Shown piece by piece: positions 17,714 to 44,593 of a DNA stretch of 64,000 nucleotides. Source of the DNA: Massalongia carnosa. Lineage: Eukaryota. Every line of letters starts with the position of its first letter. Position 1 is the first letter of the stretch. The notes under the pieces are model-generated. The model did not search any database and was not told where the DNA came from. It saw nothing but the letters and a program-made list of their open reading frames with translations. The DNA lies in the NCBI GenBank assembly GCA_965645245.1, contig OZ287074.1, positions 186,001 through 250,000 of the forward strand, in the 5' to 3' direction. The position numbers and the translations under genes are program-made.

Positions 17714-18939
17714 GTTTTCTGATTAGCCTAATGATTCTGATTGTAGGTCTGAAGATTGTGTGAGGGATAAAACGAGTTCAATTTCAATAGCCTAGTTCTA
17801 CACCAAAATCTTCAGACGAAGTCTAAAAGCTTTACTCGGGCGGAGTTCTATATAACCCCTGAAAAGTCGGTTCCTCGGCACATTACCTAACCGATGCTAG
17901 TCTGATGTCAGGTGACCTCAGGACCCTGACATGCTGAATGATCGTCTCATGTTTGCTTTTGAAACTACGAGGTAGCAAGAATAAAGATCTTCATGAAAAG
18001 ACTACATATCATTTATCCTACAGACTGCAAAAGGTGGTGTGAAAGGGAGGTGGGCCATTAGCTACTGCACCAAATTCTGATGTGTTCTGTCGCTTATTTT
18101 TTTTTTTACCGCGCAGTTTCGGGGTTCAAAGTTCGGCACACTATTTTGCAAATGGGTGTAAAACAGAATATCTGAACACTGTTTGCTTTCTTGACTGACG
18201 TCTATCTTTTCGTATTCAATTAAGATATTAAATATATGATGATGATGATGATTCTTATTCCGATGTGGTACCGGCCGAAGGCTGGCCCATGCGGGCGAGT
18301 CTATCTAGTTTTATAGTACATGGAAAACCTTTTGAGGAAGAGAAACCATGCAATCCTGTGTCCGGCCGAGGACCCTCCGGGTCCCAGCCGTGTGCTCCAT
18401 GAAAAAACCTTTGACCTAAGATGTCATGAAATCGAACCAACCCGATCCAGAATCAATCCCGCAGATGAATCTGACTAAGCTCCCGTTCCTCTATTCAGCT
18501 TAGTCAGAATCTCATTAACTAAATCGAGTTTAGACCCCTCTCAACGGCTTCAGGTCAAAGCTGTACCATCACCATCAAAGCGTACCAACGACAGGAGAAC
18601 CTCATCTCCACCTTTTATCGTCAAACACCTCGTCAAACCTTCGTGCCGTACGTCTCCTAATAGGGGGAGATGAACACTGATCGAATCTTCATGCAAAGGG
18701 GTTCGAGACAAATATAAAAGGAAGGACAAGTTAATTAGATTGTTGACTCCTTGTCCGACGTCTTGTATAGCAATCCATCACCTAGCTATAGCCTTATTAA
18801 TAAAGACATCTTGATCACCCAATCCAATTCCTAGGAACATTAGTTCAATCCCCTGCCCAGTCCTTGACATTACGTCGGACCTACATCGAAAGGTGCCTTT
18901 CATAGCACTAGCCCCTGTCCCCCCTCATATTCCACCATC

Positions 18940-23100: not shown

Positions 23101-24512
23101 ATTTTCGAAACCGTCGATACGTCCCCAATTCGGATCGGCTCCGTCTCCGTCTCATTCAACAGGCACACGACAGCGTAGCAGGTGGCCATCCCGGTCGTTC
23201 CAAATGCTACGAACTAATGAATCGATCATACTGGTGGCCCAGTATGCATCAAACTGTCAAACGATTCATTCGTAACTGTCACACCTGTAGACGATCCAAA
23301 CCATCCCGCCAACGATACCAAGGATGGCTACGCCCTCTGTCCCCACCCGAACGTCGATGGCGTGACGTTTCCATGGACTACGTAGGTCCGCTGCCTCCGA
23401 GCACCTTCATGGGTATAACCTATCGTTATATCCTCGTCTTCATCGATCGCCTTTCCAAGATGCGACATTTCGTCCCCACCACCTCCATGGAGGTAGAAGA
23501 GGCTGCTAACTCCTTCTACCAAAATGTATGGAAATTACACGGTCTCCCAGACGCCTTGATTTCGGATCGAGGCACCCAATTCACCTCCGATTTCTGGGAC
23601 ATCATGTGTAAACGGCTTAGAATTGATGCTAGGCTATCAACCAGTTTTCATCCCGAGACAGATGGCCAAACCGAGAGGGCTAATGCAACCATGGAGCACT
23701 ATCTTCGGGCATACGTCAATTACATGCAAGATGACTGGGCCCAGTACTTACCCGGTGCCGAATTCTCCAGCAATAACACCGACTCCTCCAGCATTCTCGC
23801 CTCTCCCTTCCTGGCTAATTATGGACAACACCCCAGGGTAGGATTCGAACCCGAAGAGCCCCTTCCGCAAGACCTGACCGCCCAGGGAATCGCTAACCTG
23901 ATCGCCGCCAATCGATTCGTAGACAAGATGCGAGACGTAGACACTCACCTACGAGAAGAGATGTTGATCGCGCAGGCCTCATACGAATCTTCCGCCAATG
24001 AGAACCGCCGTCCCTGTCCTCGTTATCTTGTAGGAGACATGGTATGGCTGAACACCCGAAATATCCAGACAGCCCGTCCGGCAGCCAAACTGGACGATCG
24101 AAATGTCGGTCCTTACCGAGTCTGTAAGGTGTTCGCCAACCCTCTTGTTGTTCAACTGGAACTCCCCGACACGGTTAAAATTCATCCGGTCTTTCATGTA
24201 AATCTGCTACAACACGACGCAGACGACCCCCTCCCAGGACAAATTCCCGAGCTTCGCGACCCAATAATAGCCGAAGATGGACAGCGAGAATGGTATGTCA
24301 ACAGCATTCTGAACTCGAAACTGGACAGACGTTATCAACCTCCGCTTCTCAAGTATTTCGTCAACTGGGAAGGACATACCCCCACCTGGGAGCCATTTCA
24401 CCTACTAACCAACTGTCAACAAGCTCTGGACGAATTCCACGAAGCCTATCCTGGTGCATCCGGCCCACATCTCACCCCCTGTTCCATTCCTCGATGTCGC
24501 TGTCATGAATAA
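20121..24512 (+). CDS. pol: Pol of element C (PR-RT-RH-IN-chromodomain)
   Basis: LIDCGASG protease, YLDD, ETDASD, HPETDGQTE, GPY, chromodomain (WYVNSILNSK...TWEP). The frame is open from the slippery site at 20121. Confidence 0.96.
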   Translation, partial: GKRLDSAHRRAQSPILISSCLLANSFSPPLQSNTRFSAASALELFETEEAFRDSHLVVSCILRLGRSRIQALNLIDCGASGYAFIDKKFAQTHQIPLHPLKYARRLEGFDGQPALTGNITHVAEVIMDLNGHVERLFIFVTGLKTYPIVLGHPWLRRHQALADFESNSLSLSSSFCLAHCSPHPVKVKAYTGEKFLSPAESQEVWESENYSSNSQILSEKPVLSDKTTPRDSKTTSLENQDISRIEKAIEQGDSPKIRYRSPSSYRTSTQRHAAQQNRNPPVLDVCEIGALNFNYLGRKKSHEMFALSLKEIDHFLGLTQPEPKPEPKPESRLRQETDWAHSKPTYQPNPRSSPSEKKYHLALFRMNQALTQLCSVTEPEPQPLTLQSSVTAEELNAYRERKNVDPAPLLPKQYHDFLDVFSKKESDVLPEHRPYDHAIKLKEGSPIPNQALYGMSRTEIEELRRYLDENLSKGFIRASKSPAASPVMFVKKPGGGLRFCVDYRGLNAITIKNRYPLPLITETLNRLSRAKIFTKLDIISAFNRLRIKEGDEELTAFRTRFGLFESLVLPFGLCNGPASFQHFINDTLREYLDDFCTAYLDDILIYSEIESEHEIHVKRILIKLREAGLQVDITKCKFHVTEVAYLGLIVTTEGIKMDPAKIETVTHWPIPINMKDVQSFLGFANFYRRFVYGFSKIAGPLTNLTKKEVSFQWTDKCQQAFETLKKAFTSELILMHFDPDRPIIVETDASDYVSGGILSQYDNENVLRPIAYFSKKHNPAECNYEIYDKELMAIVRCFEEWRPELEGSAHPISVISDHKNLEYFASTKQLSRRQARWSEFLSRFDFKIVYRPGKAGGKPDALTRRSGDLPKEGDETDERHKHQHQTILKTHNLDDEVAKSFLSTIILAPAFIEQDPESVEHDHEFIEPEPQLDQPADQTNPGQDPTDVPTQLLWEQALEQDQFSLKVLDMLRNNVRYHNGIQLAECEDKEGILYFRNRRYVPNSDRLRLRLIQQAHDSVAGGHPGRSKCYELMNRSYWWPSMHQTVKRFIRNCHTCRRSKPSRQRYQGWLRPLSPPERRWRDVSMDYVGPLPPSTFMGITYRYILVFIDRLSKMRHFVPTTSMEVEEAANSFYQNVWKLHGLPDALISDRGTQFTSDFWDIMCKRLRIDARLSTSFHPETDGQTERANATMEHYLRAYVNYMQDDWAQYLPGAEFSSNNTDSSSILASPFLANYGQHPRVGFEPEEPLPQDLTAQGIANLIAANRFVDKMRDVDTHLREEMLIAQASYESSANENRRPCPRYLVGDMVWLNTRNIQTARPAAKLDDRNVGPYRVCKVFANPLVVQLELPDTVKIHPVFHVNLLQHDADDPLPGQIPELRDPIIAEDGQREWYVNSILNSKLDRRYQPPLLKYFVNWEGHTPTWEPFHLLTNCQQALDEFHEAYPGASGPHLTPCSIPRCRCHE

Positions 24513-25141: not shown

Positions 25142-27740
25142 TCATCGATAGTTGTTTATGCCTATCGTATTTAGCAGAGTTTTTCTGTTGTCGTTGAGTT
25201 TGCAAAACATGATCACATGTTTTGCAGTCTGTTTGTGCCAGCCACATGAGCAGTTTGGGGACGAGACGTCTGGGACTCGGTGTCTATGTAGGAAGGCGGC
25301 TAGGCCTATCTTTTCTGAGCGTATCTGAATGGCTAGCGCGCTCTCCGCTTTGGCTAGAGTTTCGTGCAATTAGATGCGTTTTTTGGAGAGTGAACCTGAT
25401 TGTGCCGGGGTGGGAACGGGTGTGCGTTCCTGATATGATCTCCACGAGGCCTGCCATGCAACTGTGTGTCGTTTTTTTATTTGAGCAGTTATTTTGTTAT
25501 GAGCGGCGCGTGCCTCCTCTATTTCTCGGGTGAGATTCGGAGGGTATTCGGCCCATGGTGGATTTAGTGTCGGTGTTGGAGGGTTATGTGCCTCCGATGT
25601 GATTCTCTTAGCCCAGGCGTATTTCAGCGTTCCTGGAATGATGACTGGGGCCCTCTTGCGTCCTGCCCGACCTCGAAGTTTATTGGCTATTTTGTTGCAT
25701 GCATTTGTGATGAAACTCTTTTGACCATTTCGACACAGGCGTTGTCTGGTCTGGGCCTGTAGTTGATCTAAATGTTTATCAATTGAGGCTATAAATTTCT
25801 CTGCTTCTAGTATAGCTATAGGCGTTGCTTTGAAGGATCCGGCTATTTTTCTTAGACATTTGTTTTGTATGACAGCCAGTTTGTTTGAGATGACGTTTCA
25901 TTTTTGAATTTCTTTTGGCATGTGCCAAACGGTGGAGCCGTACGTCATGGCCGGCCTGACTACGGCGGTGTAAACCTGGCTTGCCTTTAGAAGAGTGGCG
26001 CCCCATGTGGAGGTGGATATTTTTGTCAATGCCCTGGATTGTTTTGTCATTTTTTCCTGGATTTTCCTTGTGTGAGCACCCCATTTCAATTTTGAATCGA
26101 TTTGAAGTCCTAGAATTCTGATGTCTGTCTTTGGTTTTATGATGTTATTTCCTATTTGAATAACAGTGAACATGTTGAATTTCTTCGGATTTCTTGACAG
26201 ATGTATCAATTCGTATTTCTTCGGAGCGAAGACTGAACCATATCGACTTGCCCATTTTTCACATTTTTTGTGAATTACCTCTAGCGTCTTGCAATTTTCT
26301 TCGGTGCTTTTTCCGTATGCTAGCACATTGATGTCATCTACGAAGCCTGGAGCACTCGTGTTGCTGCCTGGTCTTTCACATATGTCTAGTAGGTCTACAT
26401 TGTAGAACAGATAAAGAATAGGAGAAATGGGGGAGCCTTGTGGGATTCCGGTTTTTACATCGAATATGCCCGTGACTCGGCTGTGAATCGCCAGGGTAAT
26501 GCTTCTTTCATTCAGAGAACTGTTCACCCAGTCAGTAATCCATTTTGGGATTTTCCTTTTGCGAAGATTGTGAATCAGTCTTCGATGTGTCACTGTGTCA
26601 TAGGCTCCTGCTACGTCCATGCTCAATAATGTGGCTACTTTGTCTGTGCCTTGGCCCCACACTGTATGAATTTGTTCAGTCAACAATTCTAGTGCAGATT
26701 CGGTTGATCTTCCTCGTCTGGCGCCCATCTGGGTGTCGGGCAGGAGTCGGTGGGTTTCCGCTAGATGGGTTATTTTTTGTGACATGATGGATTCCATTAC
26801 TTTTCCAAGCGTGTTTAGGAGTGCTATGGGTCGATAGGCGTTCAGGGCCGAATAGTCATCCTTGCCTGTTTTCTTGAGCGTGATTGTGTTGGCGGTTTTG
26901 AATGCACGAGGATGATATGCTTGTTCTACACATGCTTGAAACAGTGGGGTGAGTAATTCGACTAGCTTTTCCGAGCATGCCTTTACAATTCTGTTGGCTA
27001 TTCCGTCCGCACCCGGGGCCGTATCGGGCTTGAGTCGGCGTATGGCTTCCATCACCTCTAGTTTGGTTATGATCATTGGACATTGTGGCGGGCTGGGGTA
27101 AAATGAACCCTCTATGTCGCTGAGGTCGGCCGGAGGGGCGGGTGGAAAGAATTTCTGTTTTAGCATGTCCGATTTCTCCTCGAACGTCTCTGCTACTTGG
27201 TCGTCTCGAACGAGATTGGGCATTTTGGGAATTTCTCTTGTCTGGTCACTTTTGTCTTTCGCCCATTTGGCTCGTTGCCAGAGACCAGTCGGCGATTCGG
27301 TGGCTTTTTCTATTTCCTTTCGGAACGACAGTCTTTTAGCCTTTTGAATGATTTTTTGTTTTCTGTGATTGGATTTTGTGTATGTTATCCAATCAGATAT
27401 GTCTCTGGAATTGGACCAGACACGTCTGAGCCTACGAGTTTCTTTCGTGATCACACTGCATTCATCATTCCAAAAGGGTTTGGCGTACTTACTTGGTCTA
27501 GCCCAAGGTACAGAGGTTTCTATCACTTCTTGAAGAAATTTTTGAATTGACACGGTGTAAGCATCGATTTCGGCGGGGGATCGGGGTGTCTTCGGGGGGG
27601 GCGCCCTCTTTTCCGCTTCTCTCAGTTTTCTCATGTTCGTCAGTTTCCAGGCCCTGCGTTCTCTGATTGTTTGAACCTCACTGTTCAGGGCAATTCGGGT
27701 GGAGATCGGAATGTGATCGGACGACTGATTGAGTTCCGGT
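25142..27740 (-). pseudogene. LINE ORF2 (RT plus C-terminal Zn finger), in-frame TGA at 25898-25900
   Basis: YRPIALLNTLGK, GIPQGSPISPILY, GFVDDIN; the frame continues past the stop (QNKCLRKIAGSFKATP); CSCG...HVIMFC at 25142-25369. Confidence 0.92.
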
Positions 27741-27888
27741 GATATTAAATATATATCTTGTCGTCATGAATAATATCAATTTGCTACAGTGACCACTAAA
27801 CGAATTTCATAGCAGTATGAATTATCTATTGTTGCTGTTACAAAATCAACGTTTCAGTAAAATGATGCGATTATTTGTTTACATATAA

Positions 27889-28953
27889 CTAATATTTAGT
27901 ATAACCTCCAATTGCATTCAGGACTGCTTGCACTCGACGAGGCATTGACCGCATTAAACTTTCCAAAAACGCCTCCGTTATGTAGTCCCATGCCTCCAAG
28001 ATAGCATCAACAATGGCCTCTTGAATTTTGGGGCACTTGCTGACAGAATGCGTAATTCGGGGTGTCTTCTAAAGACTATGTTCTTCACTTTCTTCCATAC
28101 TATCTCGATGGGGTTCAAATCGGGGAAGTCGCTTTTCTTTGAACCAGTCTATATTTTGTGTGTTTTAGCTCCATCTTGCATGAAAACAATGCCCGAATCG
28201 TCATCGAGCATGGTAGGAAGATGTTCTTTATAAGCATCGAGTATAATCAACCCTGTGATACCTTTCTTTCCCGTACGATCTGGATCGAGCTTCAACGAGG
28301 TCAAACCACCCCGTCGATTGCCCGCAAAGCAGCCCCAGAACATCTTTGTGACTCTCGATCCATTGTTGACTGGTTCGAAGCATTCTTGATCCCATTTCTC
28401 ATTTGGAAGTCGAAAAACCCACACGTTCTCACTCCCATCCTGTTTGCAAACTGACATCTCATCAGACCAACACACTTGAGCCCACTCATCTCCGAAACAT
28501 CCTCATATTGACGTGCCTAGCCCAGCCGATCAGCAATATGAGCTTCCGTTAACATCGTACGATTAGCTGCGCGCCATTTGCGAACGTTTTGATCTCAAAG
28601 ACATCGTTTCATAGTAGTTCGAGAAACATCGGGATAATGTTAGCTTGCAACTTCCCCAGAGGCTGTCGACGACCCTTTGACCCCGATTTAATCGCTGCTC
28701 GTATCAAATGACGATCTTCTCATGCTGTGGTTATTTTGGGCCGACCAGATCGTACTTCCGATTTGTGGTCATCGCGTGTTGTAGCCTTCTTCAAGGTGTC
28801 TCCTATGGTGGAACGACCCCATTGCGGAAACTTTTCGTGTATAGTACTAACGGAGGCGCCGGCGAGACCCATACCGTAAATTTCAGCTCTGATTATGACG
28901 GGCACTTCTTTGCGCGTAGTTTTAGGCTGTTTAGAGCTACGTGGTGGTGGCAT
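27889..28953 (-). pseudogene. Degenerate Tc1/mariner (IS630-like) transposase
   Basis: HTH with RSGRPK; WSDE, MFWGCF, MQDGA, PDLNPIEIVW; frameshifts, stops and an internal deletion; TIRs not identified. Confidence 0.85.
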
Positions 28954-29074
28954 GATGGATTGAAAGGTGGTTGTTTACTTTTCAAAACTAAAAAAATTCT
29001 CGTCTATCCGGACACTTCTGACCCCGCATAAATAGATTTTTTATGCGATTATGAATATCCTAAGATCAACAACT

Positions 29075-30284
29075 ATGGAGTGCCTCCTTGCTGTGGGTGC
29101 CTGCTACATCGACACTGTCCTAACGTGAGTGAGCTTACCTTACGTCTTGTAAGGGCCTAACCCATTGTATAGTGTCGAGCATTACCCTGCAGAAGACGAG
29201 AAGCTTCGCGCTTCGCGCATTGTGCGACGCCGCGGTGGCAACTGCGCTAACACGCTCGAGGTGCTACAGCAACTAGTAAACATTGATAATGTCACTTCGG
29301 TCCCCTTAGTGCTGTCTGTTGTTCTTCCTTCGACTTTTTCCCCAGGAATCCAGCAGATCAGGGCCTCGTTTGGGCCTACAGTCGATCTAACACACTGTAT
29401 CTATCGGGAAGAATGCAACGAACCAGCCTCCAGTTATATTATCAGGAGCCTCTCTAGCGATACTAGAACCCTTGTCAACTACAATGAGCTGCCGGAGATG
29501 ACAAGTGAGGAATTTATTGCAACAGCCGACGAAGTCGGGAATGACTTAGGCTGGTGTCACTTTGAGGTTAGTGACACTCTGTCCTCATGGTTAGATATAG
29601 CATGGCGGATGATTGGCAGGGACGTATACCAGAAGTCACATTGGAATGCATGCGCCATCTCCGCAAACACTTCGCTGCTGTCAAAATCAGTGTAGAAGTG
29701 GAAAAACCTACCCGCACAGGCTTGCAAGATTTAGCGGCGGAAGCAGATGTCATCTTCTACTCAAAGAGCTGGGCTCTAGTCTGTAGTTCTCACCCTTGGA
29801 ATAATCTATTGACGCTGAGAATGTCTCTGGCCTAGGCACACGGTCATAAAACACCTGAAGACTGTCTACGAGCGCGGGCAGCTTTGAACACTAAAGCGTA
29901 GATGTCGCGATTTCTTCTGCGTCAATATTCAAACAGCGCTGATTCGATTCTCAGCTCGTTATTATGCTGTACCTGGGGGAACAAAGGTGCATCAGCTCTA
30001 GAGTTACCCAACACCTATGAGCATTATCCTGCGTATACCGAGAAGGAATCTCGCGTTGTCGAGTAGGTACTGTACAGATTGCTCACGGACACATGATTCT
30101 TACTTGGAATAGTACGATAGGCGCAGGCGACACATTCATCGCAGGCATGCTGTACAGTCTTATTTGCCATGCGGATGATTGGGATCTGTCGCGCAAGCTT
30201 GCGTTTGCAAATGAACTTGCAGGGCGTAAAGTGATGCAGGAGGGGTTTTCCGGCCTTGGAAGCATCATGCAGCATAATCTGTAA
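29075..30284 (+). CDS. Ketohexokinase-like PfkB-family sugar kinase (6 predicted exons)
   Basis: AVGACYIDTVL; RRGGNCANTLEVL; WCHFE|GR; SVEVEKP; CCTWG; spliced VVDTIGAGDTFIAG (PfkB signature). One predicted donor (GTCTGT ~29779) is weak. Confidence 0.85.
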
Positions 30285-30752
30285 ATGCTGGAATAGTCAG
30301 GGAGGTATCCAAGATACCCGGACTGCCGTAGTATAACCGCGGGACGCATAGATTTTCACATTGGCTTATCTTCCAAGTACTATCTGCCAGAAGAATTGCA
30401 GGATAGTGCTGATGATCTACAAACGAGAATAGCTGAACTTTGGAGCACCTTCAGTTGCTTTCGTCAGGGTTTATGTCTATCCTTCACAGGAGGACTTACA
30501 TCATTATAAATCGCGAATTGCAAGCCAGGTAAATCAACGGACCTTTGGATTTGCCCATGTTACACACTCATGCCATTGGTTACGACCTAGCTACCATTGA
30601 CTGGCTTGTATGAAATCTAGAACACAGCATTTGAGCCGTATGAGTTGAGGTACCTTGCAAACTACATGGCTTATTACAGAGACGTTTATTAAAGCTTTTT
30701 GTTTTTTGTTGATGAAGGAAATTCACAGATATTATAACAGTAGGTAGGAATA

Positions 30753-32161
30753 ATGGCCGTTCGAATCGACGGACTCGGTCATTCTCTAGTTGAAGGGAAC
30801 TTTGAGCTGGACCAAGCTATCCTTGAAGGTCTTCATCACTTCTACATCGTTGTCATTTGGCCAGCCTGCTAATTCGATGTCTCTAATATCTAGCTCTCCC
30901 TGTGCCTGGTTCCGAGGTTATCGCATCCCATGCATATGGCATGTGGGTTTGGGCTCGGCAAGCCAAAATAGTCTGCCGGTTGCCTGATGGACATATCGTG
31001 GACTACTTCCTGAAAGTATGTGATCGAAGTCTTTTTAGTGTTTAACGTATGCCCTAAGCTTTCGACTAGGTCACAACTGGCGAAAGTGACAAGGTTATGA
31101 GCGAAGGCCAGTATGAGTCCGACAAGGCTATTCACGCTGTCTTGCCTTCCTTTTGCCCCAAACCATATGCCTGGGGTCAGTATAAAGCTTCCAAAACACC
31201 CACCTATTTCCTCTTAGCAGAATTTCGCGAGATCGGCCAACAGCCACCGGAGCCAACCCTTTTTACATCAAGACTCGCCGAAGTTCACAAAAACTCAGTC
31301 TCTCCAACGGGTAGATTCGGCTTCCATACTACAACATGTCACGGGAAGGCTACTCAGCTCACTGACTGCTGGGAAGAATCCTGGGAGGTACTCTACTGCA
31401 ACCAGCTAGCCCACGCATTCGAGATGGACAAAATAAAGCATCTAGCCTGGCCAGAATATGAGTTTTGTGCGCGGCTGGTATTAGATAAGTGTATTCCTAG
31501 GCTTCTAGGTCCACTACAGAGCGAAGGCAGGAGCATTAAACCGTGTCTCATTCATGGGAATATCTGGGATCAGAATACAGCAACAGATATGGAAACAGGA
31601 GAACCGTTTGTGTTCGACGGAAGCGCATTTTACGGGCACAATGAATATGAGCTTGGGAATTGGAGGACACCGAGACACCGGCTGAGCAGTAAAACGTACA
31701 TCAGAAGTTACAAAAGATATTTTCCGGCGAGCGAACCAGGTAATCAGGAACCATACCCAGCGGCCTAGCCAGTTAATGAGACTAATGATCTTGTAGAGGA
31801 CGATTGGGACTCGAGGAATCTGCTTTATTCTTTGAGGTTTAATGTTACGGCTGCGACGCTTATCCCAGGGAGCAATTATCGTGAACAGTATGCCACATGT
31901 CTTATGTCGGTCTCTTCGTGACTAACATGTTGAATTGGAAGCGTCTTTGAGGACTTGATGGAGCTTTGTAAGCGCATCTGCCCTAACGATCTCGCTGCTT
32001 TCAAGTCCAAAGATCAAAACGATGGAAATGATCCCACTAAGGAAAAACAGGAGACGGAGGAGGAAGGGGAGGTGGCTGAAGAGGAGGAGGAAGAGGAGGA
32101 AGAAGAAGAGGAGGAGGAAGAGGAGGAGGAGGAGGAGGAGGAAGACCGAGATAGGAAATAA
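30753..32161 (+). CDS. Fructosamine-3-kinase / protein-ribulosamine kinase family protein with poly-Glu tail
   Basis: DYFLK|V, SPTGRFGFHTTTCHG, KPCLIHGNIW, FDGSAFYGHNEYELG, SEP|EDDWDSRNLLYSLRFN. Five predicted exons; the first donor is weak. Confidence 0.85.
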
Positions 32162-32484
32162 GTTCTAATCGTGATAATACGTCAATATCCTGTTTGTCAT
32201 AGACTATATTAGTTATGAGTCATAATTTGTCGAAAATATAATGTGGGAAATTTTTTGTACACCCGATGTCGAGAAAAGTAAAATTGTATGTCAACGGAAT
32301 TCTAGAGATATCATGTGGTCAAAAGTCTAATAGTAGCAGCTAGTCCGAGGAATGAAAATCTTGAGACGGCAATTGATGAGGAATGTGATATTGATACTCA
32401 CCGATGGCTTTGACTTCTAGCCGATCCTCCCCGTAAATCTACCGTGCTATGGATCATTCTAATAGGCTTCGCGTCGCTAAACAC

Positions 32485-34291
32485 TTAATCGTCGGCCTCG
32501 CTTAGCTGCTCGGGATTTCGTGCTGCAAGAAGGGCAATAATAGCTGCCCCAACACTCGAACCATCTTTTGCAATACCGATTCTGATCCGACCTTCACCGG
32601 CTGCACCAATTCCTGTCACGTCTCTTAGGGCCTCGCGCATGTAAGTCTCAAATCCGGGATAGAACTCAATCAAACTTCCGTCAACACCAACATCAATCAT
32701 GTCATGCTCGCGGGTAGTGTTCGAAGCATCTCCCTCTTGCAAAACAGTACTACTTGTTAATTCTGGAGTGATGGCACTTACCCCATTATCGATGTTTTCG
32801 CTACTGACACCTGTACCACGCTCATCCTTGTTTAACCTTATGGAGCGCAAAGCCTCTATACCCGCAGGCAAAGGGCCCATGGGGCCAGTCAATCTCTCAC
32901 TCTGCAAAACGACTGCTCCAATGGCCATACCAGCCAATCTTGCAGCACGCTTCCCTATCGCGTGTCCAATCACCTTGATCGCTCGAGCATCTTCCACACT
33001 CACTTTCAGGCCCTGAAACCCCATGGAGTCCGCAATCTTTTGCCGTAGAATCACCAAGTCATCTGAGCTGTCCGCTTCTGCGATCGAAAGGATTGATGAG
33101 TCAACGGACCATGGAATATACAAAGACGACTTAGCATCGACCGTTGCGGCAGCGCTTACTCCGTGATCGTCAAAAAGGTTGCTCTCGGGATCCAGATGCA
33201 ACCCTAAAATCGTTTTTCTAAGGAGCTCACCGAGGAACATTCCGGAGACCCGTTTCTCAAACATTTGATTACCGGGATTCAGGCTTACTTCGTTGAGCTC
33301 CATGTCATAGGAGGTGTTTGGGAGAACCATTAAGTCATTGTCGAAGGAGCCCCACTCAATACTGACCAACATTTCTCCTGTAGAGCTGTCATACTGCCCT
33401 TCAAGCGGTTTGGTGATGTTGTGAAGCTTTTCTAAATAAACCCCGTTTGTCCCAGTGCCGAAAATAGCCCCGATCGAAGTGCGTGTCATGCAGACGGGTA
33501 GCGTGTACGCACGAGACATAATCGTGCCGGCTGCATCATTGACAAGGGCTGTGATTTTGACTGGCAGATGTAGAAGGTCAATTTCATGCTGAAGAAGCCT
33601 GCACACGTCCTGTCCAACAATTTGTGGAATATCGAACCCTTTAGTCCAGCGCAATAGTATCCCCGAATCGATTGCGGTTTGATAAACGGGGTAGGAGAAG
33701 GTAAGCCCAAGGCTAAGGATTCGTTGTTGCTCCAATATACCGAAGCAGTCTTGATGGCAAGTTTTAAGAAATACCTCGATGTGCTTTGCAATGAATGAGA
33801 ACAGCTCCGTAGCGTCCTTGACCACCATGAGTTCCGGGGGAATAGCAATTTTAGATTGCATGACACTGAAGGTCGTATCTCCATGGAAGTCGACCGAACA
33901 GACGCGAAGATTCGTACCACCTAGGTCGACCGCCAGCGAGAGCCCCTGAGACGATTAAAGAGATTTTCTGTTATAACGACCGAACAGTATGAATTGGTAC
34001 GGCTACTCACTTCCTCCACACCATTCGCGACGCGTGTAATATACGTAGGAATCTGACACATAGCAGGAGTCCTCTTGCGTAGTCCATCTCCTATTCTGCC
34101 ATTTTAGCCATTTCCAGAACTTTTAGTCTGTTGGTGGGTAACTGACGCATTTCTTGTCGGAATTTCGAGACACACTTGTTGACAGCATCATCGGTGTAAT
34201 GGAATTGAGCCGCTATTCTTGCTGCTTTTCCTTGCAGAGATGATTTCTGCGACGAGTCCAGCGACTCGGAGAAGAAAGAGTGTATCGTCAT
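32485..34291 (-). CDS. Hexokinase family, glucokinase-like paralog (3 exons)
   Basis: Introns 34091-34146 and 33946-34010. Motifs AVDLGGTNLRV, GLTFSYP, WTKGF, VND, IFGTGTNG, EWGSFD, FEKRVSGMFLGE, GVDGSLIE, DGSSVGAA. Alternative start at 34336. Confidence 0.93.
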
Positions 34292-34794
34292 CGCTGCGGT
34301 CGCTCCTCGCGAGTTACTATCAAAGCAAAGCAGCATCAATTAACCTACCACCGACCTCGGTAAGTCGAACCCTCGACCCAACGAACCCCGCCTGTTACCG
34401 AAGGTTGCCAACAGGCCCTAAGTTATTCAATATCGGGGCCTCATATTTCCCACTTCAAGTTTCTCGTCCCGTACTTGTCTGATCATCCCACGTAGATTAG
34501 AATGTAACTGAATTGACCATAGGCCGCATCGAGCAGCATCATGACTGTAGAGCTTCTCAGAGAGCTGCATGGCTTTGGATGTTTGAACCGTTTCCCTAGC
34601 GCCCCCCTGCACTGGTGGCTTATGGCCATTAGAACCAGTGATGGCTTACAGGTGAAGCTCATGAAGTAGGCGAGTGCCCCTCCTCTTCTTCATCGCCTTG
34701 GTCTTCGCGCGCTCCAATAGCATTACAGGTACTATGACCAACAGCTGTTCTTTGTCATGCGACACGCCAGAGCGTCAATACAATTATACCAAGC

Positions 34795-37700
34795 ATGGAT
34801 CTTGTAAGTGCATCAAGTTCGCGACGATTTTTTCCGAACCGCGAGGCTAGACAAGCGAGAACACCTGTACTTGAATATCATAGCCTCCGAGTACTAATCA
34901 TACGTCGGTCGTTCAATGTGTAGTTTCGCAGACACAGAGACAAGAATCGGCAGCACTTGGAAGAGGACCGGGACAAACGTAGTGATGACGAGCAATCGGA
35001 CGGTATCCCCCACAACACTTGGCCGGCTGAGGCGCAGAAGAAGCGGGCTTCTGAACCTGCCATTAGCTTCACTTCTTTACTGGATCCTGGATCAGGTTCC
35101 AGCAGCTACATACGACGAAACGTCTCTGTTGCTGCCTCCGAAGGTCCGGCATCGAGCTTTCGGACTGGGTCGCCCACACCGACCTCGAACTCTTCAACGA
35201 CCGACACCCTGGGGCTGACGATGGTCTACGCCTCGTCGGACCCAAAATTAGACTTAATATTCGTCCACGGACTTGGTGGAACATCGAGAGGAACTTGGTC
35301 GTGGGAGCGCAATCCAGCGAATTTTTGGCCGCCGTGGCTTGGCAAAGATTCGGAGCTTGCAAGGAGTAGGATATTCACTTTCGGTTACAATGCTGCTTTC
35401 ACAGGACAGTATACTACTCTCAACATCCTTGGGTTTGCCAAGGACCTCCTTTTCAGGATGATGACATATTCGGGAGAGCATCAGCAGGATGGCGTAGGGA
35501 TTGGAAAGGTATGTCTCCAATCAGGCTTCTAAGATAATACGAGAGGCTCACCAAGATTCTTGTTTAGTTGCCACTTATTTTTGTTGCACATTCGATGGGA
35601 GGTCTAGTCGTCAAGAAGGTATTACTATGGCTGTCACTATACTTTTTCGCTAAACACTAAGCGCTTCAGGCCTACATCATCGGCAAGTCCGACCAGCAGT
35701 ATACTGATATTGTTGCAAGTATCGCCGCGATGGTCTTCTTTGCTACACCCCACAAAGGCTCAGCATTCGCTCAGACTCTTAACAGCATACTTAAGGCAGC
35801 GCCAGGCGGCACTGCAAAAGCTTATGTGGCAGAGCTGGAAAAGAATTCGAGCTCCTTGCAAGATATTAACGAACAATTCCGAAATATCTGTGGGAATCTG
35901 ACGCTCGTTTCTTTTTATGAAACTCTGAAGACTAGCCTTGGGGCCGGTATAAAAAAAGTTGTCAGTACATGAATTGCAGAGTATCATCGTTCCATCTCAA
36001 GAGGTTTCTGATAACGATAGATTGTTGATCGCGATTCCGCACTTCTTGAATATCCTGGCGAAACCTCAAGCTCTTTGATCGCGGATCACCATGGCATGAC
36101 GAAGTTCAAAAACCCTCTTGATACAAACTACGTTAATGTCAGAATCCTTTTAAGATGGCTTATGAAGAATATTGTTCATGACGACAATACAGAGCAAGGT
36201 AGGAAAATGTCACCATCAATTACCCTGTGAGAGTCTATAGCTGAAAATGATGAAAGCTTCGACTATTGGAAATAGCAAGGTAATAAAGAGCTCTTCAGGA
36301 TATGTAAATACATCATCGAATGAAGTACCTATCGAGAAGCGTCTCATGGATATTCTGGGGATATCTGAAAGTGTGGAGGATGACCTAGAATTTCTGGCGG
36401 ATAGGACAATGCAAGGCTCTTGTCAATGGCTTTTACAACGGCAAGCTTTCCAGGACTGGGTCGGAGACAGCTCGATCCCTTCCCGCTTGCTGTGGCTAAC
36501 CGGGAACCCTGGGTCGGGGAAGTCCACTCTGGCAAGTTTTGTGATAACTTCGCTCAAGAAGAGAACCTTTGCTGGGACCTGTCATTACCATTTCTTCCTT
36601 GCTGGGCACCAGACCAAGAGATCTCTTTCGTATCTTCTTCGAAATATTGCTCTACAGGTAGCGCTATCTCACGAGGCCTTCTGCTTGCTGCTTCTAGAAC
36701 TTCACGATAATACCGGAATGATTTTCAGTCAACAGAAAGCGATTATCATCTGGGAGAAGATATTTGAGGGGCTTATCTTTCGGCTGTCCTTTCAGGACCC
36801 TCTCTTTTGGGTCTTTGACGGTTTAGACGAGGCTGAGTCGCCTACAGAACTGATAAAGTTCCTTTCGAAAATTAGATCTGCTACGAGAATCAATGTACTA
36901 TTGGTGAGCCGTGCGACCAAAGACTTGGTCAAGGACATCAACGATTACCTACCAATGACAGTTCATGAGGTAATTTCGGCTGATGACAGTTTAGAGGACA
37001 TCCGGGCCTATGTGCGCACATCAATTCGGAAGATCCTTCCTAGTGATCGTGCACAGGATGATGCGATCCAAGAGATTTTATCCAAAGCCTCGGGGTCCTT
37101 CTTGTGGGTTAAATTAACATTAGACAGGATCAGAGACAACTGGTATACCAAGGATGATATAAAACTTGCCTTGACCGAGATTCCCGCGGGAATGGAGCCT
37201 TTGTATGATCAAATGATAGAGATCATCGCCAACCAACCTTCAAAACCCCGGGAGATGGCCATTCGGATTCTGACATGGGTAGCATGTTCCTTCAGACCCC
37301 TCGAAGTCGCCGAGCTCGAAGTTGCCCTCAGACCTGACTTCAAAGATTTTGTCAACCTTGCATACACTGTGGAAGAAATATGCGGACACTTTGTGGTAGT
37401 CAAAAAGTCGAAAATCGCGCTTATCCACGAAACAGCTTCCCAGTTTCTACTACGCAAAACATCAAACTTACATGTTAGGATACTTGAAAATGAAGGCCAT
37501 AATCACATCGCTGTGGTCTGCATCCAATTTCTCTCGAATACTTCTAGATGGAGACGGGTGTTCACTACAATTCAAGTGCAACAACATTCTAAATCTCCGT
37601 TATTGAGCACTAAAGTTTTTGATGAGTACCCATTCTTGGCTTATGCGTTGTCCTTTTGGGCGTATCACGTCAGTCTTGCTTCTATAGACTCAGACGATCT

Positions 37701-40074
37701 CCTAAGAACAGTTCTAGATTTCTTGGAAAATCATTGTCTTCTTTGGATTAACGGTGTTGCTTTGTTCCGAACCCTTCGCAGCTTGACACAAGCAGCTCAA
37801 CACCTAAAAACATTCATTAAGAGGAGAGCATATGCTGTCTCGAAGCGACTGCCAACAAGCTTCGCGCTGGCCCGTGATGGTGAATTGCGCCAATGGGCGA
37901 ATGATATTATTCGTGTGGTCGGGCGTTTCAGTAACAATGTTACCGAATGCCCATCTTCTATTCACAAATATGTCGTTCCCTTTTGCCCAAAGGACTCCAT
38001 CATTCGTAGGTCTTTCGGCCATGGAGGTCGATCAACATTCTCCGTGACGGGCATGTCCTCAAACAGTTGGGATGACTGTGTAGCAAGGCTAGCTATGGGC
38101 GAGGATCAAACAGCATCTAAGGTGTTTTGTAAGGACGCCTTCTTTGCAACACTTGTCAGTGTAAATGGCACTCTCATAGTGTGGCATGCAGAGACTTGTG
38201 AAGAGGTAAGGAGATTCACTCATGGGGAGTATGTTAGTTATATGACTAGCAGTAAGACATCAAATCTTGTGGCAACAGCAGGCTATCAGACAACGAGAGT
38301 ATGGGACATTACTACAGGCGAGGAACTCTATCGTCTGCCTAAGGAACGTCACCATCACACCAGAGCAATGGCATTTGGAGCTCAAGATGATACATTGCTC
38401 GTTGCTTACGACGATTGTTCTGTACAGTGCTTTGACTTGGCAACAGCTCAAGAGAAGTGGCGGTTCTTAGCGAAAGAGCCAGGTACTTTAGACCACAACT
38501 GTGCCCGATTTATGGCCTTTAATATCGATTTGACACAAATTGCTATCGTTTTCCGTGGTAGGCCTGTAGTCGTGTGGACTATACAACCCTCATCTTCTTC
38601 TTACCTCCTACCGAAGAGATGCGTCCTCACGGAGGACAACATACGGTCGACAGCCGAAGGCGATGCATGGAATGCTCCTGAAATGGCCTTGTGGCAGCCG
38701 GGCACTGATCACCTTTTAATCTTGTATGAGGATACGAAAATCGTTCACTGGAATTTGACAGACGATGAGCAGATGCAGTACAGCCACATGGACGCTCGAG
38801 GGATGGTCTTGAGTCCGGATGGGAATCTCCTCCTTACTAGCGACGTAAATGGGACACTCAGTATCTGGATGGTACCTGAATATCGCCTCATCTATCAACT
38901 CAAGTATGAAGAGCTTGTGACGGACTTAGCATTTTCGGCCGATGGGACCCGGTTTTACGACATTCGGGGTACGTTTTGTAATGTTTGGGAACCAGACGCT
39001 CTTATTAGACCAAACGAAGTCGATCAAGAAGACATTTCAAGCACCAACGAGACAGTCATTTCAGAACCCGTCATTTCTAACGATGACAACTCCCGGGTAC
39101 CGATCACTGCGTTAGCCTGCGATTCATCAGACAGATTCTACTGCTACGGAAAGGAAGATGGATCAGTGGTGATTTGTGATATACCAGGCGGCAAGAAAGT
39201 CCGAAAAGTAATAAGTCACTCCACTTCGGTGTCTGTCATAAAGCTTGCCTGGTCGGTTTCAGAGAAATATCTCGCGTCAGCGGATGATTCTGGACGCATC
39301 ATTGCAAAACGGCTAGAACCACCTAGAAAGGGGAAGGGAAAATTTGCGGTATTTCCAGTGTTCGATGTGCGTATCGATGAGGCTGTGGAGCAATTTCTAT
39401 TTAGCGCTTGTGATGAGTTCCTGCTTATTTCTGGCCGAACTACTGCACGTGTCATGAATCTCAAGACGAAGGAACAGGCCTGCCGTATAAGCCACCAATA
39501 TCAAGTGGATGGAGTGTGGATAAATCATCCATCAGCCTTTACAGACTTGATAAGAGTTAGTGCCGATCACGAGCGCCAATATCGATGGAAGACTCTTACA
39601 CCCAAAGACGAAACAATAACTTCATCGCTGCAAGCCGCCCATCTCGCTCAATCCTCGTGTATTGTCCAAAGGATGATGACTATCCGAGGCCACTGGCTGG
39701 TTCTAGAAGTCTTAGCGATCGGCCGCAATTACGCAGGCTCCCACAACCGCCATATAGAAGTACTTGATCTGCATAGAATACAGGATTCTACGAACACAGA
39801 AGCTTCAACGAGGCAGAGAATCGAAGGGCTTGCGAAACATGTCAGACGTCTGATAGGATGCTTTCAAGATCGGGTCGTGTTCATGGATCACCAGTTTTGG
39901 CTATGCACGTGGGATTTTGAGCCGGTGTATAGCAAGCACAAACGCCACTTCTTCCTCCCGAAAGACTGGCTAAGTTCTACAGCATTAAGGGTGATAGGCT
40001 TGAATAGTCTAGGGACATTGCTTTGTCCGAGGAATGGTGAGGTTGCAATTGTTCGATCGGGCTTGAAATGTTGA
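34795..40074 (+). CDS. NLR-like STAND protein: alpha/beta-hydrolase (SesB/PGAP1-like) - NACHT - winged helix - WD40
   Basis: Predicted exon 1 ATGGATCTT|GTAAGT; LIFVHGLGG, AHSMGG nucleophile elbow, FATPHKGS, ADHHGMTKF; Walker A GNPGSGKS; Walker B VFDGLDE; GSFLWVKL; IHETASQFL; divergent WD40 repeats to the C-terminus. Confidence 0.9.
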
Positions 40075-40470
40075 GAGACTGGACCGCAGATATCCTCAAA
40101 AAGTCTACACACCGCACAGGCAATTAAAGTGTCTTCGAGTCTCTACGACTTTCTATGATTATACTTGAGATTCAATGATTAGTATTGGTTTTTTTTATTT
40201 TTTATTCAATAAGTGTATGCAACCTAAGGTTATGACACTGATTTTTAGGGTTCGGATACGGGGACACCGGGTAGGATGCATGTACACCGGGCACTTGATA
40301 CATATACACCCTCTTCCCAAAAAGGTAAAGGGCCGGCACATTTCGCACCACTTTACCTTTCTTGGTTAACAGATGAAAAATCAGATGGTGATTTGAAAAC
40401 TATGCGGCAATGAAGTTTTCAGCATTGATCTGTTGCATCTCATCAAGATTGATAAGATGACATCTTCTAG

Positions 40471-42706
40471 CTACTCGGTCGCAATTGCCTTGTCAGTCCT
40501 ACCCCTTCTTCCCCTGCCCGCCCTGCCCCCCTTGCCCGCCTCGCCGACCTTTTTCGCCTTGTCCGCCTTGTCCGCCCTGTCCGCCCTGTCCGCCCTGTCC
40601 GCCCTGTCCGCCCTGCCCGCCCTGCCCGCCCTGCCCGCCCTGCCCGCCCTGCCCGCCCTGCCCGCCCTGCCCGCCCTGCCCGCCCTGCCCGCCCTGCCCG
40701 CCCTGCCCGCCCTGCCCGCCCTAGTTGCTGCTTGAGTCGCAGGCCTGGATGAGGCACGAGTGCCTGCCACCTCACCTTCATCTCGTCGTCGCTCGCGCCC
40801 GCGCCCGCGCCCGCGTCCCGCTGGTGTAGCCTCGGCTCTTGCCAGAACTCGTTCGATATCCGCTGGCAGTTCATTCCCATGTTGCTCTGCTATTTCACCT
40901 TCAACGATTTCGAATTGAGATGGATTCCGATAGGTGGAGTTGTCCAATGCTTGTCTACGATTCTCCGCCCCTGCAGGACGTCCTCGAGGTTGGACAACTG
41001 CTGGTTCTTCCACCTGAAGTAGCGGATCGAGAGCTGGATCATTGATTGGATCAGGTAAGGAAGATCTTTCAACCCTCCAATAAGGATGGACATCTTCCAA
41101 AATCAGACATCCCTCAGGTCCGAATAAACGTTCCTGCATTTTGTGACTGCATGGTAATCCGGTAGTAGTTGTAAAGCTTCCAGTGCAACGATTGACTGCT
41201 GTTGCTTGGTCCGTCAACAGTCTGTATTGATCATCCATTCTTCTCAATGCGTATGGGGTTACGAACGCCGCGATGCGATTGAAAACTGGTTTTCGAAGAT
41301 CCATAGGGTATCGCATCTTCGCTTCGTCAAAGGCTATCATGTAATTTTGTCGCTCGTTGATTAGAAGTAGGTTGATGCCATCTACAACTGTTTTCAAATC
41401 TCCTACAGCTCAGTCAGTATTGAATGTTTCTTAGGGTTGTACTCATTACCTGTTGATACTCCGAGATGACGTTTAAGAGCTGCGTGCCCCCCCTCACCTC
41501 TAGAAGTAGTTGTGGTTCCGAAATGTAACACCTGATCGGTTTGAAATTTCACGAAGCGACGATGAAAGGACATGATGTACGTTTCTCGCAGATAATCCAA
41601 ACATTCTCCATGCGTTAGATAGTAGGTGTCATTCATTCCCTGCCACGCCGACTCGTAATCAACTCTGGAAGCGGCGTACAGAAGTCCAGGTGGATATGAA
41701 GTCATCCCATGCTTCTTTGGTATTGAAGTCCTTCTTGCAATTTGCCGTCACATTCTTGTTGATATGCCAAAGACAGAGCAGATGATTCGTATTGGGAAAG
41801 ATCAATCGCACGGTATTCATCAACCCACGTTCCATGTCGGTCACAACAACCACCGGATCTGGAAGTTGCAACTGCGCATACAACGATTTCAATTGTCCCA
41901 ATGTCCACTCATAATCCACCTGCTTCTCCTTTGCCATGAAGCAAAACGCGACATAGAAATTAGTATGTAGGGCCATTTGCCCGCTGATGATCAGCAACGG
42001 AAGTTTATATCTGTTGGTTTTGTAGGTGCAATCCATGACCAGAACTCCATGATTGACCTTCAGTAGAGTTTGGGATGTTCCTCTCACGAAGAATAAGTGG
42101 GTGATCTGATTGCGAATGTCTTTCTGATAGTTGTACGTCCAGTCGTTTTGATCAAGTTCCTGCATCAATGCCTGAACCGGGGTTAAAGGACCTAGAGTAT
42201 CTCGTCTCAGCTGTGCCTTGATGTTGTAGATATCTCGAGGCTTGAATAACGGATTGTTGTCATCGGCGTCAATACGAAGGGTGGAGAGAATCTTAGAAGG
42301 AGCTGTTTGCACGGTCAATTATCTAGAGATGTCGTTTAATCTCTTCAGTCATAGCCATTTTGCGTAACGTTTGATGCGATCCAGCAATTGTAGCTTCATG
42401 ATTATGGAATGAGTTGATTACTTCCAATAACCAGGTTCCATCCACTCTGTTTCGCACCGCCGTGACCTTGAACTGACAATCGATGATTCGAGTATTGGTA
42501 TGACGTCTATCCCTGCCTCGAGGTATTCGATTGCTACCTCCCCTGTCGCAGCGCAACCAGACTTTTCTCTTGATGCCAAGATCTGATTTCTTTGATCTAG
42601 CTGTGACCACCGCGTATCCTTCTGAGCCGGCGTGAGTATTGACGCTGAGAATGAGTTCTTCCAAGGTGGAAAAAACCTGGTCATCGTGAGGAGGAGCCAG
42701 AGGCAT
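40471..42706 (-). pseudogene. MULE transposase (FAR1-like Zn domain plus DDE), frameshifted
   Basis: CDRGG...CQF...HNH; MDCTYKTNRYKLPL; TDMERGL; LCLWHINKN; TTSRGEGGH; GLPCSH. Frame breaks near 42320 and 41680; intron ~41403-41449. Confidence 0.9.
40553..40720. repeat. 9-bp minisatellite (CCCTGCCCG / CCCTGTCCG) encoding (RAG)n(RAD)n at the MULE transposase C-terminus
   Basis: Directly visible tandem array with a polar change of unit type. Confidence 0.95.
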
Positions 42707-43126
42707 GATTTGAGAATGATTGAGAAAGATGATGCATCAATTGAAAATTTCAAGATTTTTTCATCTGCTAACCAAGAAAGGTAAAGTGGTGCGAAATGTG
42801 CCGGCCCTTTACCTTTTTGGGAAGAGGGTGTATATGTATCAAGTGCCCGGTGTACATGCATCCTACCCGGTGTCCCCGTATCCGAACCCGATTTTTATAG
42901 TGATTGACTTCACTTTTAAGTAGATCTAATATATAAGTTTTAACCGCGCTTGTATCTCTTTAAAAATTTTGAAAATTGCATGTTAGTAATAATAGTACTG
43001 GTTAATCGAAATAAACTTTCCGATATGTATTTACCAATTTCTATTTATTCTTCAATTTCTCCTCATCCGCCTTCTTCGAATTGTTTATCATTTAATCGAC
43101 CTAATAATCATTTTCTTGTGACAATC

Positions 43127-43190
43127 TGTTGGAATAGGTATATGACTATGGCTATATGTGTTGAAATAGGTATATGACTATGGCTATATG
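43127..43190. repeat. 32-bp tandem duplication
   Basis: TGTTG(G/A)AATAGGTATATGACTATGGCTATATG twice. Confidence 0.85.
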
Positions 43191-43273
43191 GCTATGGTAA
43201 AAATGGTATGTATGACCGTGATGTTAAGGATGAAGAGTGTTGTTCAGCAGTCTTTGTCCCATAACTAGTCACC

Positions 43274-44593
43274 CACGCGGGTGAAAAAAAAAGATGCAAC
43301 GTGGGCCGAGGTTAACCCCTGATCATACCAAAAAATCCTAAATAATCAACAAAATCACGTACTTTCAACTACATCATGCCTTCTAAACGTGGTGCTGTTC
43401 ATTATGATACTCCTCTGAAGGCCAAAGTTCAAGGCGCGCATCAATATCTTTCTGCTAAAGGAATTCCACACGACGTGCGCGATATTTTCAAAGAATTTGG
43501 TGTCAGATCCGAAAGAGCAGGATATAAAATGCTGGAAGAGGGAGCATCGTCACGAAAGCGACATCATATTTCAGAAATAAATGACACTCGAGGACGCAAA
43601 TCAAAAGTCACTGGAGAACAAGTGCGAGAGGCTAATCAAATTCTACAATAAAGGTGATTTAGAGCTCGAAGGAAAGAGATATACTTGGGAACAAATTGCA
43701 ACGGAGGTAGGAGCTGAAGTGGTAGGTCGAACCATGCATAACATTCTTCGAAAGGCTTTGGATTTTGAGAAATGCCTGGCCTGGGTGAAAGGATGGCTTG
43801 ATGAGACTCCTATAGAACGAAGAGTTGAATATGCTTCGGTAATGAAAGCAAGATATCCCAAATCAGAAGACTGGCATCGAGTTCGATTCAGCGACGAAGT
43901 GCACTTCGGACACGGTCCCGAAGGTCAATTGTGGATAATTCGTCAGCCTGGTACTCGATATCGCTGGGATTGTATTCAGCATCGTGATCCTCCACCCGAA
44001 AAGACTCGAAAACAAATGCATTGCTGGGCTGCAGTCGGGTTCAATTTCAAATCTGATATCATATTTTACGATGTTCCGGGCAACAGCAATGGTAAAATGA
44101 CTCATCAGGTCTACATCGACTCCATTCTCGAACCTGTAGTCAAGCCTTGGCTTGACAGAGACGACGACTTCGTTTTGAAAGAAAATGTGGACTCCGGACA
44201 CGGCACCGGTAGAGCGAGAAATACTGTGAAAAAATAGAAGGAGGATTATCGTTTGGAGCATTATTTCAATTGTGCATCATCACCCGATTTTTTTTTCCAC
44301 CATTGAAAACTGCTGGCAACCGATTAAACAGCATGTTCGTAAATATCCACATTGGGATGATGCTACTTTGAAAGAACTGATTCGGGCTGGTTGGGTGTTT
44401 CTCAGGAGTTCATAAATGAACGTGTTCGTTCCATGCCTGAACGACTGCAAAGTGTGATTGACAGTCACGGTGCAATAACTGGCTATTAAACATGTAAATA
44501 ATGATGTTTTGATGAATTTTATGGGAAAGTTTTTGGTGGGGTGATCAGGGGTTAACCTCGGCCCACGTTGCATCTTTTTTTTTCACCCGCGTG
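43274..44593 (+). mobile_element. Tc1/mariner-like element with 52-bp perfect TIRs and degenerate transposase (43376-44489)
   Basis: TIR CACGCGGGTGAAAAAAAAAGATGCAACGTGGGCCGAGGTTAACCCCTGATCA at both ends; RGRKSK, RFSDEVHFG, HCWAAVG, SPD..IENCW; frameshifts and stops. Confidence 0.92.

Follow-up and report, generated by a model that had tools for sequence, protein, structure and literature searches.

FN3K-like genes as recurrent neighbours of lipase-NACHT-WD40 NLR genes, and one such NLR gene beside a sugar-kinase block in Massalongia carnosa

It is known that some fungal NOD-like receptors (NLRs), namely HET-S/NWD2 and sesA/sesB/het-eN, have genomically linked partner genes. To our knowledge, nearly all fungal NLRs have no known function, and the only well-understood partner genes work through amyloid motifs. 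Here we consider an NLR gene situated in a 64,000-nucleotide stretch of the genome of Massalongia carnosa (contig OZ287074.1; this whole stretch is referred to as the window), where it shares an 11-kb island with genes for three kinases: a ketohexokinase-like one (KHK), a fructosamine 3-kinase-like one of group A (FN3K-A), and a predicted glucokinase (GLK).

In the known systems, which are discussed in PMC9815663, the NLR and its partner gene are adjacent over long evolutionary distances, as they are in the family of the window NLR, and the sesB-type NLRs share with the window NLR the arrangement of a SesB-like lipase N-terminus, NACHT, and WD40. The pairs themselves differ: in the known ones an amyloid signalling motif is common to the NLR N-terminus and the partner C-terminus, whereas here we observe a full enzymatic N-terminal domain and a partner with the FN3K-like kinase fold.

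An analogy for a kinase-fold partner is provided by the plant NLR ZAR1, whose repeat domain is bound by a pseudokinase. The pseudokinases working with ZAR1 belong to the RLCK-XII family (ZED1, RKS1; PMC6634424). Common to both cases is a kinase-fold, often catalytically dead protein as a possible sensor-side partner of an NLR, FN3K-A lacking the catalytic Asp; on the other hand, ZAR1 relies on a eukaryotic protein kinase fold, leucine-rich repeats and a coiled-coil output, and the fungal case on an FN3K/APH-like fold, WD40 and a lipase. As for the metabolic side, the bacterial frl operon for fructoselysine use combines a PfkB-type kinase, FrlD, with a transporter and a deglycase. The window resembles it in that a kinase of the PfkB fold lies among further genes that may act on Amadori compounds; however, the PfkB gene of the window matches ketohexokinases only, the trio contains neither a deglycase nor a transporter, and we deal with eukaryotic synteny, not with an operon. 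Finally, FN3K-A has the same PF03881 fold as the ketosamine 3-kinases FN3K and FN3K-RP (6oid, 9cx8) and keeps the downstream FDxxxFYGHxE motif, but differs from them by HGN in place of HGD, a long acidic tail, and the linkage to glucokinase and ketohexokinase genes.

The non-random tie that we find is that of an FN3K-like kinase to the NLR, and not of three kinases feeding an NLR. For the island as a whole, we lean slightly towards two separately conserved linkages, the kinase block and the FN3K-NLR pair, that have been joined and rearranged in the window. Literature searches and the main text (supplements excepted) of PMC12258605, PMC9815663 and PMC4986451 gave no description of either the FN3K-NLR pairing or the kinase trio that we could find.

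FN3K-NLR pairs in other fungi

A metagenome scan anchored on FN3K matched 590 stretches and yielded 473 relatives; the best 80 loci were analyzed, forming 59 clusters at 95% nucleotide identity. An NLR homolog is present beside an HGD-type FN3K gene in 22 of the 28 informative clusters that do not belong to group A (27 further non-A clusters, not counted among these 28, were too short to tell). In 20 of these 22, the NLR gene is situated upstream on the opposite strand, that is, head-to-head, at 962–2000 nt from the FN3K core exon; the remaining pair loci are a tandem (L062) and an ambiguous one (L017). Similarity of the NLR neighbour to the window NLR extends over its four parts, with identity of 38–54% for the hydrolase, 32–47% for NACHT, 30–42% for the middle region, and 24–44% for WD40. 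Pairing with FN3K-like genes is the rule in this NLR family.

The earlier, sequence-only reading of the window had proposed a functional tie between its three kinases and the NLR. For one of the three, the FN3K-like kinase, such a tie is plausible from the gene neighbourhoods, its paralogs being the ones linked to the NLR family, but KHK or GLK genes were found in none of the 76 FN3K-anchored loci outside the trio loci (L002, L003, L007, L036), which speaks against this part of the proposal.

To control for synteny in general, ORFs (open reading frames) of 16 distinct pair loci were compared all-vs-all. The families present in at least three loci are FN3K (16 loci), NLR (16), and a major facilitator superfamily (MFS) transporter (7); other shared ORF "families" are antisense shadows of these same genes. 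The transporter gene is located about 1–2 kb downstream of FN3K on either strand, in one deep clade (L039, L055, L058, L059, L064, L069, L074). In one of these loci, L055, there is also a second, unrelated NLR of the NWD type (NACHT_N and NPHP3_N; 18957–20655, plus strand), at a distance of 9 kb downstream from the pair.

The phylogenies of the two partners agree in their deepest split. In a 21-row tree, the two deepest NLR clades (each 100/100) are formed by partners of the two deepest FN3K clades, in 8/8 and 5/5 of the loci that both trees contain. In the tree of the whole NLR family, comprising 130 representatives, the 16 linked NLRs and the window NLR, the linked NLRs are dispersed across two large clades, with 15 changes, as in shuffles; thus, the linkage is pervasive in those two clades. 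The window NLR belongs to a separate clade of 11 rows (support 96; with P0361–P0363, P0365–P0368, P0380, P0400, P0409), and its position mirrors that of the clade containing FN3K-A in the FN3K tree.

The kinase trio and the changed catalytic loop of FN3K-A

The order and strands of the window, KHK(+)-FN3K(+)-GLK(-), recur in two independent metagenomic loci (L002/L003 and L007), and L036 contains FN3K with the end of GLK. In addition, at least two of the three kinases are linked in 12 named fungal assemblies, linkage being defined by locus tags (consecutive or next-but-one tags, or a merged model) or by contigs of equal size. Linked tags are found in Bacidia gigantensis (KY384_004153/4), Xanthoria parietina (XPA_008377/8), Gallowayella cf. 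fulva (L6R40_006626/8), cf. Caloplaca sp. 1 (Q9220_000833/5), Xanthoria aureola (LQ349_005158/9) and Xanthomendoza sp. 1 (Q9186_006016/7); Calogaya cf. arnoldii has a single gene model with both Hexokinase_2 and PfkB; and two kinases are on contigs of equal size in Sclerophora, Geoglossum umbratile, Chrysothrix, Uncinocarpus, and Whalleya. The seemingly unlinked FN3K genes of Glarea, Bisporella PMI_857 and Geoglossum umbratile, situated on a contig other than that of the linked kinases, were considered as refuting the trio and rejected, as these copies are the HGD paralog. Judging by these linkages, KHK, FN3K-A and GLK constitute an old syntenic block of Pezizomycotina, and the suggestion that the three kinases are not neighbours by chance is upheld.

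The glucokinase gene of the block has the Pfam domains Hexokinase_1 (E 6e-51) and Hexokinase_2 (E 3e-64), and its translation contains LGFTF-like, NDxxGT and GTGxNG motifs, which we take to be the sugar and ATP motifs of glucokinases. Its main exon has 2461 relatives among 8000 scored candidates, with one match per species among the matches listed; the best named ones, all labelled "glucokinase", come from Geoglossum simile (68%), Sclerophora amabilis (66%), and Uncinocarpus reesii (60%). Among single-domain PDB matches, yeast Glk1 is the best (2e-84), ahead of the yeast hexokinases (1e-70, 2e-65). Because of these named matches and the higher score of Glk1, the gene is predicted to be an ordinary fungal glucokinase ortholog (GLK1/GlkA) residing in its usual syntenic block. 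The earlier idea of the three kinases as an accessory module in a transposon nest is not supported, an ordinary syntenic position being what the sequence-only reading itself had named as speaking against it.

The KHK-like gene has PfkB (PF00294) on its last exon and keeps the GAGD anion-hole and catalytic motif in the form of TIGAGDTF. Its exon 2 has 293 relatives among 596 candidates, many of them, from Aspergillus and lichen fungi, named as ketohexokinase or PfkB kinase. For a full-length ortholog (P0244, 65% identical to exon 2), all ten PDB matches at E<=0.001 are ketohexokinases, the best at 1.6e-29. The gene is predicted to code for a true enzyme of the ketohexokinase family.

The third member, FN3K-A, is different. 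It has the Pfam domain PF03881 (Fructosamin_kin) with E 5e-24 and 85.4 bits versus the cut-off of 22.4; its core exon has 305 relatives among 329 candidates, with identity up to 86%, and relatives in protein and metagenome searches are 80–88% identical; it is the most conserved gene of the four. At the same time, its LIHGNIWDQN is aligned with LLHGDLWSGN of the solved Arabidopsis and human FN3K structures (HGDLW; 6oid, 9cx8), the catalytic-loop Asp of the FN3K family HGD being absent. Of the best 120 relatives, 36 have HGN and 81 HGD, three being unreadable. In the family alignment, HGN is found in the copies linked to KHK and GLK, and HGD in the others; in the tree of 87 rows, the HGN copies group in a single nested clade (13 rows, support 100) within the family. 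Given the loss of the catalytic Asp, FN3K-A probably acts as a pseudokinase, or as a binding protein whose chemistry has changed, and its being the most conserved of the four genes despite this loss suggests that a non-catalytic or altered role has been kept. The C-terminus of FN3K-A (32060–32140) contains a run of about 25 Glu residues; acidic tails are also present in many HGN and HGD relatives, and the tail seems to be a trait of the FN3K-like family.

The flanks of the trio differ between the loci: transposons and the NLR in the window, DNA with GC content of 27–30% in L002, and ordinary genes in L007 (a GDS1-like gene, a methyltransferase, and an amadoriase-like oxidase). The trio of L002 is an island with 43–51% GC between stretches of 26–35% GC (1–5000 and 13000–20666) without long ORFs and, as in the window, persists inside degenerate repeat DNA. 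The oxidase of L007 (9605–10933, minus strand) is a FAD enzyme 4 kb from the trio with fructosyl peptide and amine oxidases as the best PDB matches (E 2e-43). It was not found in the window or L002, that is, it is present in one of the three trio contexts, and the amadoriase-like, GDS1-like and methyltransferase genes were rejected as a wider conserved synteny, since they occur in L007 only.

This oxidase, together with the MFS transporters following FN3K in 7 of the 16 pair loci and with the MFS pieces merged into two NLR gene models (P0373, P0461), would be expected if the linked genes were a co-regulated system for handling small molecules. The FN3K-like kinases, in one clade with the transporter, would serve the uptake or modification of ketosamines or of a xenobiotic. 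The NLR-like STAND protein would have stayed beside them, without contacting the kinase, only because both share a divergent promoter or respond to one inducer (the head-to-head layout suggests one promoter), and in the window the trio would be a metabolic block for sugars and Amadori products. We consider this decidedly unlikely. The FN3K copy of the trio has no catalytic Asp, the amadoriase-like gene is restricted to a single trio context, we know of no metabolic role for a lipase-NACHT-WD40 protein, and the FN3K-NLR linkage has outlasted all other synteny, which a shared promoter would explain only in part.

The island, its NLR and the surrounding repeats

The coordinates of the genes and their surroundings are given in Table 1. 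The gene models are based on stop-to-stop ORFs, Pfam and hand-built splice models.

Table 1. Features of the four-gene island and its flanks (positions in the window; a dot means that no strand is assigned)
Feature	Position	Strand	Details
Left repeat flank	25898..28974	.	Non-LTR reverse transcriptase ORF (Pfam RVT_1) and degenerate transposase-like ORFs; depth 10–100 times that of the island
KHK-like (PfkB fold)	29075..30284	+	6 exons: 29075-29124, 29173-29566, 29620-29778, 29836-29897, 29955-30062, 30113-30284; 314 aa
FN3K-A (FN3K-like, group A)	30753..32161	+	5 exons: 30753-30828, 30894-31015, 31070-31739, 31797-31887, 31942-32161; 392 aa, acidic poly-Glu tail
Catalytic-loop His-Gly-Asn codons of FN3K-A	31553..31561	+	Asn for Asp of HGD; aligned to Arabidopsis (6oid) and human (9cx8) FN3K
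Glucokinase (predicted GLK1/GlkA ortholog)	32485..34291	-	3 exons: 34291-34147, 34090-34011, 33945-32485; 562 aa
Divergent intergenic region	34292..34795	.	504 bp, glucokinase ATG to NLR ATG
NLR	34796..40074	+	Exons 34796-34804, 34924-35508, 35568-35618, 35670-35960, 36021-36226 (or -36198), 36276 (or 36257)-40074; ~1646 aa
SesB-like alpha/beta-hydrolase of the NLR	35221..36226	+	Lipase-type AHSMGG nucleophile motif at 35568-35618
NACHT (NPHP3_N) NTPase, then GPIID winged helix	36415..37462	+	Walker A GNPGSGKS, Walker B FDGLDE; PF24883 E 9e-41, PF05729 E 3e-7
WD40 propeller and conserved C-terminal tail	38101..40071	+	Matches to several Pfam models of WD40 and beta-propellers, best E 2e-17
Right repeat flank	40240..42889	.	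MULE-type insertion (Pfam MULE) just 3' of the NLR stop; missing from the X4 contig

Four intact spliced genes, packed with gaps of about 0.3–0.5 kb in a field of transposons, had been described from the sequence, and all of this is confirmed. The four genes (29075–40074) are open with GT..AG introns and are separated by 468, 323 and 504 bp; no extra copies of any of them were found within the window. The start of the NLR, with a 9-nt first exon followed by a 119-nt intron, was placed at ATG 34796 from the homologous N-termini of P0362 and P0368. For intron 4, two boundaries are possible, both of which leave the frame open.

The NLR comprises, in this order, an alpha/beta-hydrolase, NPHP3_N/NACHT, the GPIID winged helix (GPIID_WHD), and WD40, hence having the NACHT, WD40 and GxSxG-type hydrolase of the SesB-like/NACHT/WD40 architecture of fungal STAND proteins. 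The hydrolase-domain exons have no Pfam match of their own and were identified from the AHSMGG motif and homologs. Residues 1–1200 encoded by the long exon, used as the query, retrieved 1015 representatives (E<=1e-30), of which the 150 best can be aligned over nearly the full length, with 28–57% identity. NPHP3_N, GPIID_WHD and WD40 score in all 30 long representatives, and an N-terminal Abhydrolase_6, DUF676 or PGAP1 in 16 of the 30 at E<=1e-5; two of the 30 carry a merged MFS piece. A fusion of FN3K to the NLR was sought in the 30 long family members and found in none. There are no DNA-level tandem repeats at 35000–40200, including the WD40 region, and for this reason we predict that the NLR is not a hypervariable allorecognition receptor of the HNWD type. 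The family has a strongly conserved tail after WD40 (39900–40071 in the window) with a consensus of approximately FWVCTW...RHFFLPxDWLN...GTLLCPRxGEVAxVRxG, which is not covered by any Pfam family.

The transposon field consists of three pol ORFs of the Ty3/gypsy type, one of the copia type, one non-LTR reverse transcriptase, one hAT and one Mutator-like element (MULE). The polyprotein ORFs at 3561–7643, 12235–17722, 20115–24512 and 52801–57518 (three Ty3/gypsy-type, one copia-type) are long and mostly open, which suggests recent transposon activity in this genome. A GC-rich repeat with a 9-nt period is observed at the edge of the right flank (40470–40735), with Ala-Leu-Pro or Pro-Cys-Pro runs in several frames.

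In contigs of four public runs covering 26500–43500, the region 29007–40239 has single-copy depth, both flanks being 10–100 times deeper. An independent run from another study, labelled as a lichen metagenome (X4), has KHK and FN3K on one contig, and GLK and the NLR on a separate contig of 8009 nt that has 85 differences from the window over approximately 7.7 kb. This label and the best matches from lichen-forming fungi suggest that the genome is that of a lichen mycobiont. As the layout is the same in an independent sample, the four-gene arrangement is real and not an assembly artefact. The GLK and NLR contig of X4 joins 40239 directly to 42890, skipping 40240–42889; the MULE insertion is polymorphic, either within a lineage or between close ones.

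With high-copy repeats bounding the island on both sides and a polymorphic MULE insertion next to it, chance juxtaposition in a repeat-rich genome is a serious rival: a transposon-driven rearrangement would have brought the conserved trio next to an NLR-family member unrelated to it, with no functional meaning. The trio loci that have no NLR and an orientation unlike that of the usual head-to-head pair would also be expected in this case. We nevertheless hold it to be unlikely. It is exactly this one NLR family that is found beside FN3K-like genes in 22 of the 28 informative non-A loci, and a chance arrival at only two genes' distance from an FN3K paralog is unlikely, its probability being put, as a rough estimate made without a genome, at well under 1%. 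Moreover, the positions of the NLR and FN3K-A in their trees mirror each other, and the arrangement is stable in a sample that is approximately 1% diverged.

Origin of the arrangement and its possible meaning

The sequence-only reading had taken the three kinases and the NLR as one co-mobilised module, with a phosphosugar ligand produced for WD40 or with the kinases as guarded or decoy proteins, and had proposed looking for all four genes together elsewhere. The four genes are indeed intact, tightly packed, and found together in an independent sample, and the trio does recur elsewhere, but a conserved linkage of the trio to the NLR is not observed: no NLR is present beside the trio in either of the two other trio loci that have a flank, also at E<=1. 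Since the trio is conserved without the NLR, the NLR-family loci elsewhere have FN3K-like genes but neither KHK nor GLK, and the glucokinase appears to be an ordinary ortholog, the module is highly improbable.

Several observations, the missing NLR in these two loci being the first, also weigh against our preferred explanation, in which a kinase block and an FN3K-NLR pair have been joined. One of the two NLR-negative flanks, the low-GC DNA of L002, is little informative, but that of L007 consists of ordinary genes; when degenerate NLR remnants were looked for near the trio in both loci, only two chance-level matches were obtained (E 0.12 and 0.91), both within other genes. Six of the 28 informative non-A clusters have no NLR in at least 3 kb upstream of FN3K. 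None of the 16 linked NLRs belongs to the clade of the window NLR, and hence the pairing of that clade with FN3K-A is known from the window and sequences closely related to it. The window NLR is head-to-head with the glucokinase and not with FN3K-A. The matching trees are also expected from plain vertical inheritance of neighbouring genes. For the block itself, the HGN copy and the glucokinase of Seirophora scorigena are on contigs of differing size.

If the block and the pair have indeed been joined, the window NLR would belong to one more FN3K-NLR pair, with FN3K-A as the partner. This pair would have been rearranged, the glucokinase now sharing the divergent promoter of the NLR (504 bp); one inversion of the segment with GLK and FN3K would convert the usual head-to-head layout into that of the window. 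The FN3K-like protein could then be the partner of the NLR on its sensor side, either as an adaptor or as a protein under guard; the non-hypervariable WD40 domain would read the state of this partner, with the lipase domain presumably being the output. KHK and the glucokinase would be metabolic neighbours of FN3K-A and not suppliers of an NLR ligand.

A broader and rather speculative generalization, which we think improbable as it stands, is that FN3K-like kinases and pseudokinases are dedicated sensor-side partners of lipase-NACHT-WD40 NLRs across Pezizomycotina, a fungal counterpart of the ZAR1 system, and that FN3K-A ties the sugar or glycation status, possibly photobiont carbon, to the activation of the NLR.

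The glucokinase/ketohexokinase/FN3K-like block is a new lead on the handling of sugars or glycation in ascomycetes, including lichen fungi living on photobiont sugars. In this NLR family, the WD40 domain is predicted to lack hypervariability, and this argues for a fixed ligand and not for variable non-self. A conserved, co-diverging neighbour with a kinase fold would hand the whole NLR family a concrete and testable partner.

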